Assembly (NCBI RefSeq): GCF_003334405.1
Contig: NZ_QOWM01000001.1
Origin: Escherichia coli
Lineage (GTDB): Bacteria > Pseudomonadota > Gammaproteobacteria > Enterobacterales > Enterobacteriaceae
Reading direction: 5' to 3' (one strand)
DNA length: 64,000 nucleotides
Both the position numbers and the translations under genes were made by a program. The notes under the pieces were generated by a model that was given only the letters and a program-made list of their open reading frames with translations, did not search any database and was not told the DNA's origin. Below, piece after piece: positions 36,742 to 36,900 of this stretch (its first letter is position 1; each line of letters starts with the position of its first letter).

Positions 36742-36900
36742 GTGAAAGATATTTTATTTTCTTCCGGCGTTGGTTTTGGTATTGGTGCTTTGTTTACAAT
36801 CGTGCGCTTGCCTATTCCTGTACCAAATGTATTACCGGGTATATTATCCATTGTGTTTATGTATGTCGGATATCTGGTGGTGAAATACTTTATGCCATGA
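36742..36900 (+). CDS. putative small membrane protein (52 aa, XapX-like), GTG start
   Basis: Uninterrupted 53-codon frame from GTG 36742, with AAAGG 7 nt upstream; product VKDILFSSGVGFGIGALFTIVRLPIPVPNVLPGILSIVFMYVGYLVVKYFMP is predicted to have two TM helices. It sits between xapB and xapR and is below the ORF-track size cut-off. Family assignment is from memory only. Confidence 0.5.
   Translation: MKDILFSSGVGFGIGALFTIVRLPIPVPNVLPGILSIVFMYVGYLVVKYFMP

Follow-up and report, generated by a model that had tools for sequence, protein, structure and literature searches.

Several small proteins of the bacterial inner membrane bind transporters and modulate them, as in the pairs AcrZ-AcrB, MgtS-MgtA/PitA, KdpF-KdpABC and MntS-MntP. 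The subject of the present analysis is xapX, a gene that lies beside a transporter gene and from whose type of locus the XapX-domain (TIGR03510) or DUF1427 family took its name. No functional study of xapX or DUF1427 was found in the literature, and the mentions that were found consisted of a domain survey from 2005 (PMC554113) and a gene table (PMC13268207). The survey described DUF1427 as a domain of unknown function, supposedly restricted to plant-associated Proteobacteria. This restriction is contradicted by the range found here, which includes enterics, vibrios, Bacillota and haloarchaea. The recurrent tie of XapX relatives to nucleoside transporters and phosphorylases was previously unremarked.

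The gene is already known to annotation pipelines and is not new. A RefSeq CDS named 'DUF1427 family protein' (WP_000651752.1) was present at xapX in every sampled record (about 75 rows, drawn from the complete genomes of E. coli with the spacer between xapB and xapR, about 4,060 in number), and the K-12 derivatives BW25113 and DH5a also carried the annotated CDS. Other sources name the relatives 'XapX domain-containing protein'. In the MG1655 record NC_000913.3, there is no feature between xapB (b2406) and xapR (b2405). An earlier note on this DNA had called the frame unlisted; this is right for the ORF track that it worked from and for the MG1655 record, but wrong for RefSeq/PGAP, which annotated the gene in all sampled records. 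The absence of a conserved, selected 52-aa membrane-protein gene from the MG1655 record is a curation gap and not a discovery. From the cut-offs stated in the small-protein literature, we infer that XapX, at 52 aa, is just too long for small-protein screens with their limit of 50 aa and close to the minimum size accepted by older gene finders.

The window analysed here is a stretch of 64,000 nt from E. coli (contig NZ_QOWM01000001.1, assembly GCF_003334405.1), and its xap locus is identical to that of K-12-type strains. As Table 1 shows, yfeN on the minus strand is followed by xapA, xapB, a spacer and xapR on the plus strand, and beyond xapR lie tRNA genes and gltX.

Table 1. Features of the xap locus, with positions counted from the first nucleotide of the window.
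Feature	Position	Strand	Details	Evidence
yfeN, Tsx/OmpK-type outer-membrane nucleoside channel	33527..34291	-		ORF; RefSeq of identical locus; Channel_Tsx Pfam match in orthologous loci
xapA, xanthosine phosphorylase	34540..35373	+		ORF, RefSeq and MG1655 annotation
xapB, xanthosine:H+ symporter, NHS family of MFS	35433..36689	+		ORF, annotation
Sigma-70 promoter-like site	36618..36647	+	GTGATA-18-TATAAT, inside xapB 3' end	Consensus scan only
GC-rich hairpin	36698..36726	+	9-bp stem, 5-nt loop, then TTTTAT	Sequence scan and RNA fold
Shine-Dalgarno-like AAAGG	36730..36734	+	7-nt spacer to xapX start codon	
xapX CDS	36742..36900	+	52 aa; GTG start; TGA stop, then TAA	ORF, HMM, RefSeq, selection, AF2
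Promoter-like site	36897..36925	+	ATGATA-17-TATTAT, overlapping xapX stop codon	Consensus scan only
xapR, LysR-type activator of xapAB	36941..37825	+		ORF, RefSeq and MG1655 annotation

The xapX frame translates into the peptide MKDILFSSGVGFGIGALFTIVRLPIPVPNVLPGILSIVFMYVGYLVVKYFMP, and in MG1655 it occupies positions 2,522,518-2,522,676 of the minus strand. Because an in-frame TAA codon stands at 36736-36738, two codons upstream of the GTG, this GTG is the sole possible start. Salmonella and Enterobacter use ATG as the start codon, whereas GTG serves in E. coli, Pseudocitrobacter and Chimaeribacter, and a purine-rich Shine-Dalgarno-like site precedes the start in each of these genera. In Salmonella, Chimaeribacter and Enterobacter, the equivalent sites read AAAGG, AAAGGAGG or GGGGG. 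The earlier note had described a GTG-initiated frame of 52 codons between xapB and xapR, on the same strand as xapAB, with a plausible AAAGG ribosome-binding site 7 nt upstream and a strongly hydrophobic product containing Gly and Pro. Frame, site and strand were found as described, and the peptide had a GRAVY value of +1.31 with six Gly and five Pro residues. The note also placed the frame correctly in the gap between the two genes, but the length of 236 bp that it gave for this gap did not hold: with the RefSeq start of xapR the spacer measures 251 nt, 40 nt of which separate the xapX stop from xapR. The figure of 236 nt arose because a longer, mechanically called xapR ORF starts at 36926.

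The frame is a genuine protein-coding gene, because the family match, the pattern of polymorphism within E. coli and the comparison between genera agree. The NCBIfam model TIGR03510, 'XapX domain', gave the peptide a score of 64.2 bits, its curated cut-off being 27.8, and the match (E = 5.8e-18) covered positions 2-48 of the 49 in the model. When the spacer was shuffled with its dinucleotide composition preserved, 14% of the shuffles held an ORF of at least 52 codons, so the length of the ORF alone is not beyond chance; the substitution pattern, unlike the length, is beyond chance. Among 5,426 complete genomes of E. coli, 4,066 contained the xapB-xapR spacer. The identical protein WP_000651752.1 was encoded by five sequenced alleles unlike that of the window, with spacer divergence of up to 6%, and in the comparison of these alleles with the window all eight polymorphic sites within xapX fell on codon position 3 and were synonymous. 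By position alone, the chance of eight such sites in eight is (1/3)^8 = 1.5e-4. Among the E. coli alleles, six differences were located in the 52 nt from xapB to the start codon, against seven in the whole 159-nt ORF.

Between genera, xapX showed dN/dS values of 0-0.125 against ten loci (Nei-Gojobori; 0-0.13 against nine other genera), a range equal to that of xapA, xapB and xapR in the same loci, although dS was saturated in distant genus pairs and the values there are approximate. Differences from eight other genera were mostly at codon position 3; at codon positions 1, 2 and 3 they numbered 6, 2 and 25 against Salmonella and 9, 5 and 30 against Chimaeribacter, respectively. These patterns point to purifying selection on the xapX frame both within E. 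coli and across genera, and the conservation of the frame against synonymous drift, which the earlier note had put forward as a check, was thus borne out. Frame-disrupting changes, which the note had named as a refutation, did not occur in the main E. coli alleles and were limited to rare, apparently insertion-element-borne disruptions. An ORF arising by chance in an AT-rich spacer would be in keeping with the proportion of shuffles that reach 52 codons, but it is refuted by the match to TIGR03510, the synonymous-only polymorphism and the low dN/dS, and we give it practically no weight.

Between xapB and xapX lies a hairpin that looks like a terminator or attenuator. It begins 8 nt downstream of the xapB stop, is separated by 21 nt from the xapX start codon and has a predicted folding energy of -15.2 kcal/mol (z = -1.5). 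A hairpin with an altered stem sequence was found at the same position in other E. coli alleles, Salmonella, Phytobacter, Enterobacter sp. and Chimaeribacter, and a T-run followed most of them. With only these 21 nt before the start codon, transcription of xapX must either begin at a promoter in the last part of xapB or run through the hairpin from the xapA promoter, which xanthosine induces. With low confidence, the promoter-like site inside the 3' end of xapB may be regarded as a candidate start of a xapX-xapR transcript, and the site that overlaps the xapX stop codon as a candidate promoter of xapR, also with low confidence; the number of promoter-like sites in the region was no higher than in shuffles. 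Co-transcription of E. coli xapX with xapAB is hypothetical, as the terminator-like hairpin intervenes.

Expression of xapX in E. coli is probably low and may take one of two routes. Read-through of a weak hairpin terminator after xapB would make xapX inducible by xanthosine, while a constitutive promoter could be common to xapX and xapR. PMC7205307, citing the original work, reports xapR to be constitutive and not autoregulated. A genomic-SELEX peak of RpoN was assigned to the xapB-xapR spacer at 2,520,564 in U00096.2 (PMC8743547), which converts to about 36876 in the window, within the 3' part of xapX. No sigma-54 motif of the form GG-N10-GC was found for this peak in 36601-37000. A search of two ribosome-profiling supplements by MG1655 coordinates and by peptide gave no xapX entry; the xap genes were uninduced in those experiments.

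The same slot was occupied by xapX in the xap cassettes of at least ten genera, in agreement with the small XapX-type domain family that the earlier note had linked to this kind of locus. The cassette xapA-xapB-xapX-xapR was present in Salmonella, Enterobacter sp., Chimaeribacter, Escherichia sp., Pseudocitrobacter, Entomohabitans and Phytobacter, although in Chimaeribacter it lies elsewhere on the chromosome, with metG on one side and rha genes on the other. In Pragia and Limnobaculum of the Budviciaceae, the order was xapA-xapB-xapX-deoC-xapR, with deoC overlapping the xapX stop in Pragia and following 22 nt downstream of xapX in Limnobaculum. In both genera, transcription of this catabolic gene must cross xapX. 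Furthermore, xapX of the Budviciaceae stays with xapB and not with xapR in a catabolic transcription unit, which argues for its place in the uptake and catabolism portion of the locus.

This gene order bears on a different reading of the frame, namely as a translated leader (uORF) or as xapR-promoter DNA whose peptide has no function. In E. coli such a reading could draw on the end of the ORF 40 nt upstream of xapR, on the promoter-like site over the stop codon and on the RpoN peak in the spacer (PMC8743547). However, deoC separates xapX from xapR in Pragia and Limnobaculum, the homologues of Aeromonas, Salinivibrio, Yersinia and archaea lack a neighbouring xapR, and species without xapX keep xapR behind a spacer of 67-100 nt. 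The amino acid sequence is also conserved, with a dN/dS of about 0.05, while synonymous change is saturated between genera. Regulatory leader peptides drift in sequence and always lie directly upstream of the regulated gene, and xapX was found to do neither. Because of its substitution pattern, we regard the leader or uORF reading as largely refuted and very improbable.

The xap loci with these short spacers were those of Klebsiella huaxiensis, Citrobacter freundii and the Enterobacter cloacae complex, in which the order was xapA-xapB-xapR, and no remnant of xapX was found in their spacers. From the existence of xapAB-xapR loci without it, xapX is therefore dispensable for XapB. To judge from these distributions, xapX may have been lost repeatedly, or alternatively the cassette may circulate in two forms. 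Within E. coli and Shigella, rare variants of xapX are disrupted: the XapX sequence of four proteins stops at residues 47, 40, 28 and 26, and each then passes into essentially the same tail of 26 aa, which reads GNDSNLLIVFYVQIMPDDFVMQLHRF in three of them and is shortened to GDDANLLI in the fourth. The shared tail indicates independent insertions of one mobile element, and it may be an IS1 end, which it resembles.

The whole island yfeN-xapA-xapB-xapX-xapR (33527-37825), of which yfeN is the left edge, is variable in E. coli, and about 1,350 of the 5,426 complete genomes had no match to the xapB-xapR spacer. The O157:H7 strain Z887 carried yfeR, a flxA-like gene and tRNA-Lys and no xap genes. 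Strain HH45 carried decayed remnants of xapB, xapX and xapR at 73-88% identity. The HH45-type locus was considered as the cause of the roughly 1,350 genomes without the spacer and rejected, because the arrangement was unique to one genome. Compared with phylogroup B2-type alleles, the xap genes were unusually divergent, with nucleotide differences of 8% (dS 0.36), 5.5% and 3.6% for xapA, xapB and xapR, respectively, a divergence that suggests ancient allelic lineages or recombination with DNA from other species. In some strains, xapR and lysV had between them an additional element of 126 nt with the annotation 'RtT sRNA' (positions 3747-3872 of locus L007 and 3745-3870 of locus L008), which the K-12-type locus matching the window lacks.

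A profile search among 1.84 billion representative proteins yielded 75 relatives of XapX at E <= 1e-3, with lengths of 45-106 aa. Their alignment showed two Gly-rich hydrophobic segments, and the most conserved element was the turn (R/K)LP(I/V)P(A/V)P between them. In 38 diverse members, P24, P26, P28, G11, G15 and G43 were invariant or nearly so. The helix glycines of XapX are G9, G11, G13 and G15 in the first segment and G33 and G43 in the second. AlphaFold2, run from the family alignment, predicted a helix at residues 2-20, a loop at 21-30 and a helix at 31-50, with a mean pLDDT of 94. XapX is thus predicted to be a hairpin of two helices joined by a conserved LPxPxP turn, and this model agrees with the two transmembrane helices that the earlier note had predicted. 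No relative was found among solved structures, with zero matches both in a profile search of the PDB and in a Foldseek search of the AlphaFold2 model against the PDB. Lys and Arg residues numbered 146 at the termini and 40 in the loop of 55 homologues, which weakly suggests, as a hint, an N-in/C-in topology, mis-called N-terminal extensions inflating the terminal count. The Pfam family PF07235 (DUF1427) gave no match to E. coli XapX even at E <= 10, whereas 19 and 31 of the 38 relatives matched at E <= 0.001 and E <= 0.1, respectively. The RefSeq name 'DUF1427 family protein' is inconsistent with this lack of a Pfam-A match for the E. coli protein.

The predicted fold also bears on whether XapX might be a small hydrophobic peptide with a toxic action, of the type I toxin kind or another, as its short length, great hydrophobicity and weak GTG start could suggest, together with its absence from the K-12 reference, which it shares with what was once true of many type I toxins. 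A two-helix hairpin is predicted here and not a single helix. An Rfam scan of both strands of the spacer gave no RNA element and two chance-level matches only, and a PHROGs scan of XapX gave no meaningful match and no holin or toxin. Type I toxins are accompanied by an antisense or overlapping sRNA, are restricted to certain lineages and often occur in multiple copies; xapX has none of these attributes, being single-copy and syntenic in a catabolic cassette across orders, in a family that spans bacteria and archaea. A toxic function is accordingly very unlikely in our judgement.

Beyond the xap cassettes, all relatives called XapX-domain proteins were checked against TIGR03510 and scored above its cut-off. 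In Aeromonas caviae, nupC, encoding a CNT-family nucleoside transporter, was followed by a terminator-like hairpin, a gene for a 56-aa XapX protein with a GGAGG ribosome-binding site, and deoC ... deoB, deoD. This Aeromonas ORF (5001-5171 in locus 3603-9840) was unannotated, and the hairpin lies upstream of it as in E. coli; the record is labelled as a 4.9-Mb 'plasmid' with only 18 annotated features and is evidently a chromosome. An Enterobacterales metagenome-assembled genome had the order nupC .. XapX .. deoB-deoD. A plasmid of Yersinia frederiksenii encoded a KdgM-type porin, a GPH-family symporter and, after a gap of 2 nt, XapX. XapX relatives thus adjoin three unrelated transporter families, XapB, NupC and GPH, two of which are families of nucleoside transporters. 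In Salinivibrio, XapX was located 22 nt upstream of deoD with no adjacent transporter, and in the haloarchaeon Natrinema, a DUF1427 gene adjoined the gene for 5'-deoxyadenosine deaminase.

In a genome scan with the pattern LPIP[AV]PNV[LF], which biased the sample to the LPIPAPNV subfamily, 19-20 of 23 non-xap loci had a tandem pair of XapX-domain genes directly beside a gene for an FmdA/AmdA-like amidase. These pairs spanned Burkholderiales, Rhizobiales, Bacillota, Actinomycetota and Syntrophorhabdaceae, and the genera included Pandoraea, Oxalicibacterium, Afipia, Ancylobacter and Sulfobacillus. Often the neighbourhood also encoded another amidase-like protein, in fusion with a domain of the AraC type. 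Other contexts were an FMN reductase gene with overlapping start and stop codons, DUF1934 and, in Thalassotalea, a XapX gene that stands alone, with a dsbA-like gene on one side and topB on the other. The recurring themes of the family are the uptake and breakdown of nucleosides and the catabolism of small amides, and neither is universal.

Such contexts can also be explained by an autonomous XapX, in which the Gly-rich hairpins would oligomerise into a small passage or facilitator and the adjacency to xapB would reflect shared regulation and not partnership. Candidate solutes would be the released purine base leaving the cell and, at the amidase-linked loci, small amides entering it. The tandem XapX genes were the only membrane-protein genes seen beside the amidases, Salinivibrio XapX directly precedes deoD, the Thalassotalea copy is monocistronic among housekeeping genes, and xapX has apparently been lost while xapB was kept. 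Set against these observations, the alignment showed helices with hardly any polar or charged residues to line a pore, XapX is very small and without a sequence or fold relative among solved structures, and the amidase-linked loci come from the pattern-biased sample. We consider an autonomous passage unlikely.

Our overall explanation, which we hold with considerable confidence, is that xapX is a genuine gene for a predicted two-helix protein and travels with the xap cassette, combined with a much less certain accessory role for its product. Most likely, we infer, XapX would serve nucleoside uptake and breakdown as an auxiliary membrane protein that is not essential. In mechanistic terms, the hairpin would insert in the inner membrane, and the small-residue faces of its helices would pack against another transmembrane surface, most probably that of XapB. 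As a non-essential accessory, XapX would then tune the uptake or the stability of the transporter. By analogy with other small membrane proteins, this packing on an adjacent transporter with a non-essential tuning function is put forward tentatively, as a possibility somewhat short of an even chance. It is preferred because the relatives directly follow three unrelated transporter families and because it is the usual mode of small membrane proteins.

Three findings stand against an accessory of the transporter. XapB orthologues in Klebsiella, C. freundii and the Enterobacter cloacae complex work without xapX, xapB and xapX are set apart by a terminator-like hairpin, and many family members, such as the amidase-linked pairs and the Thalassotalea copy, have no neighbouring transporter. 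On their gene contexts, the relatives without transporters would fit an autonomous function as well as a partner-specific one, or better. A broader proposal, which we find rather doubtful, is that XapX hairpins form a widespread, unstudied auxiliary class for catabolic uptake modules, acting on transporters of unrelated folds or as solute passages. If this were true, E. coli K-12 would hold an unannotated working example of this class inside a textbook operon. XapX is a cheap and well-posed test case for small membrane proteins that aid catabolic uptake, as E. coli genetics and the inducer xanthosine are at hand.

Compared with known systems, XapX resembles subunit c of F/V-type ATPases in its overall architecture, a pair of membrane helices of which the first has a GxGxGxG-like pattern, with a short conserved loop that contains Arg and Pro. 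However, XapX has no membrane-embedded carboxylate such as the conserved ion-binding one in helix 2 of subunit c, with no Asp or Glu in either helix, and neither profile nor Foldseek searches of the PDB gave any match. The resemblance is one of shape only. With AcrZ, MgtS, KdpF and MntS, XapX shares a length of about 50 aa, a hydrophobic character, a gene beside or within a transporter operon and dispensability for basal function. There is no homology between these proteins and XapX, and most of them are single helices, in contrast to the predicted hairpin of XapX. Furthermore, binding of XapX to XapB is only putative, and many XapX relatives have no adjacent transporter; the position typical of transporter-adjacent small membrane proteins is occupied after xapB, after nupC in Aeromonas and after the GPH symporter in Yersinia, and it is not universal. 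PF07235 (DUF1427) supplies the PGAP name of E. coli XapX and matches half of the aligned relatives. The closest correspondence is with the XapX domain of TIGR03510, which is the same family with the same name-giving type of locus: the E. coli protein has a full-length match at more than twice the cut-off, two helices of about 20 residues with the LP(I/V)P(A/V)P turn and a xap context directly after xapB, and it shows no difference from that family.
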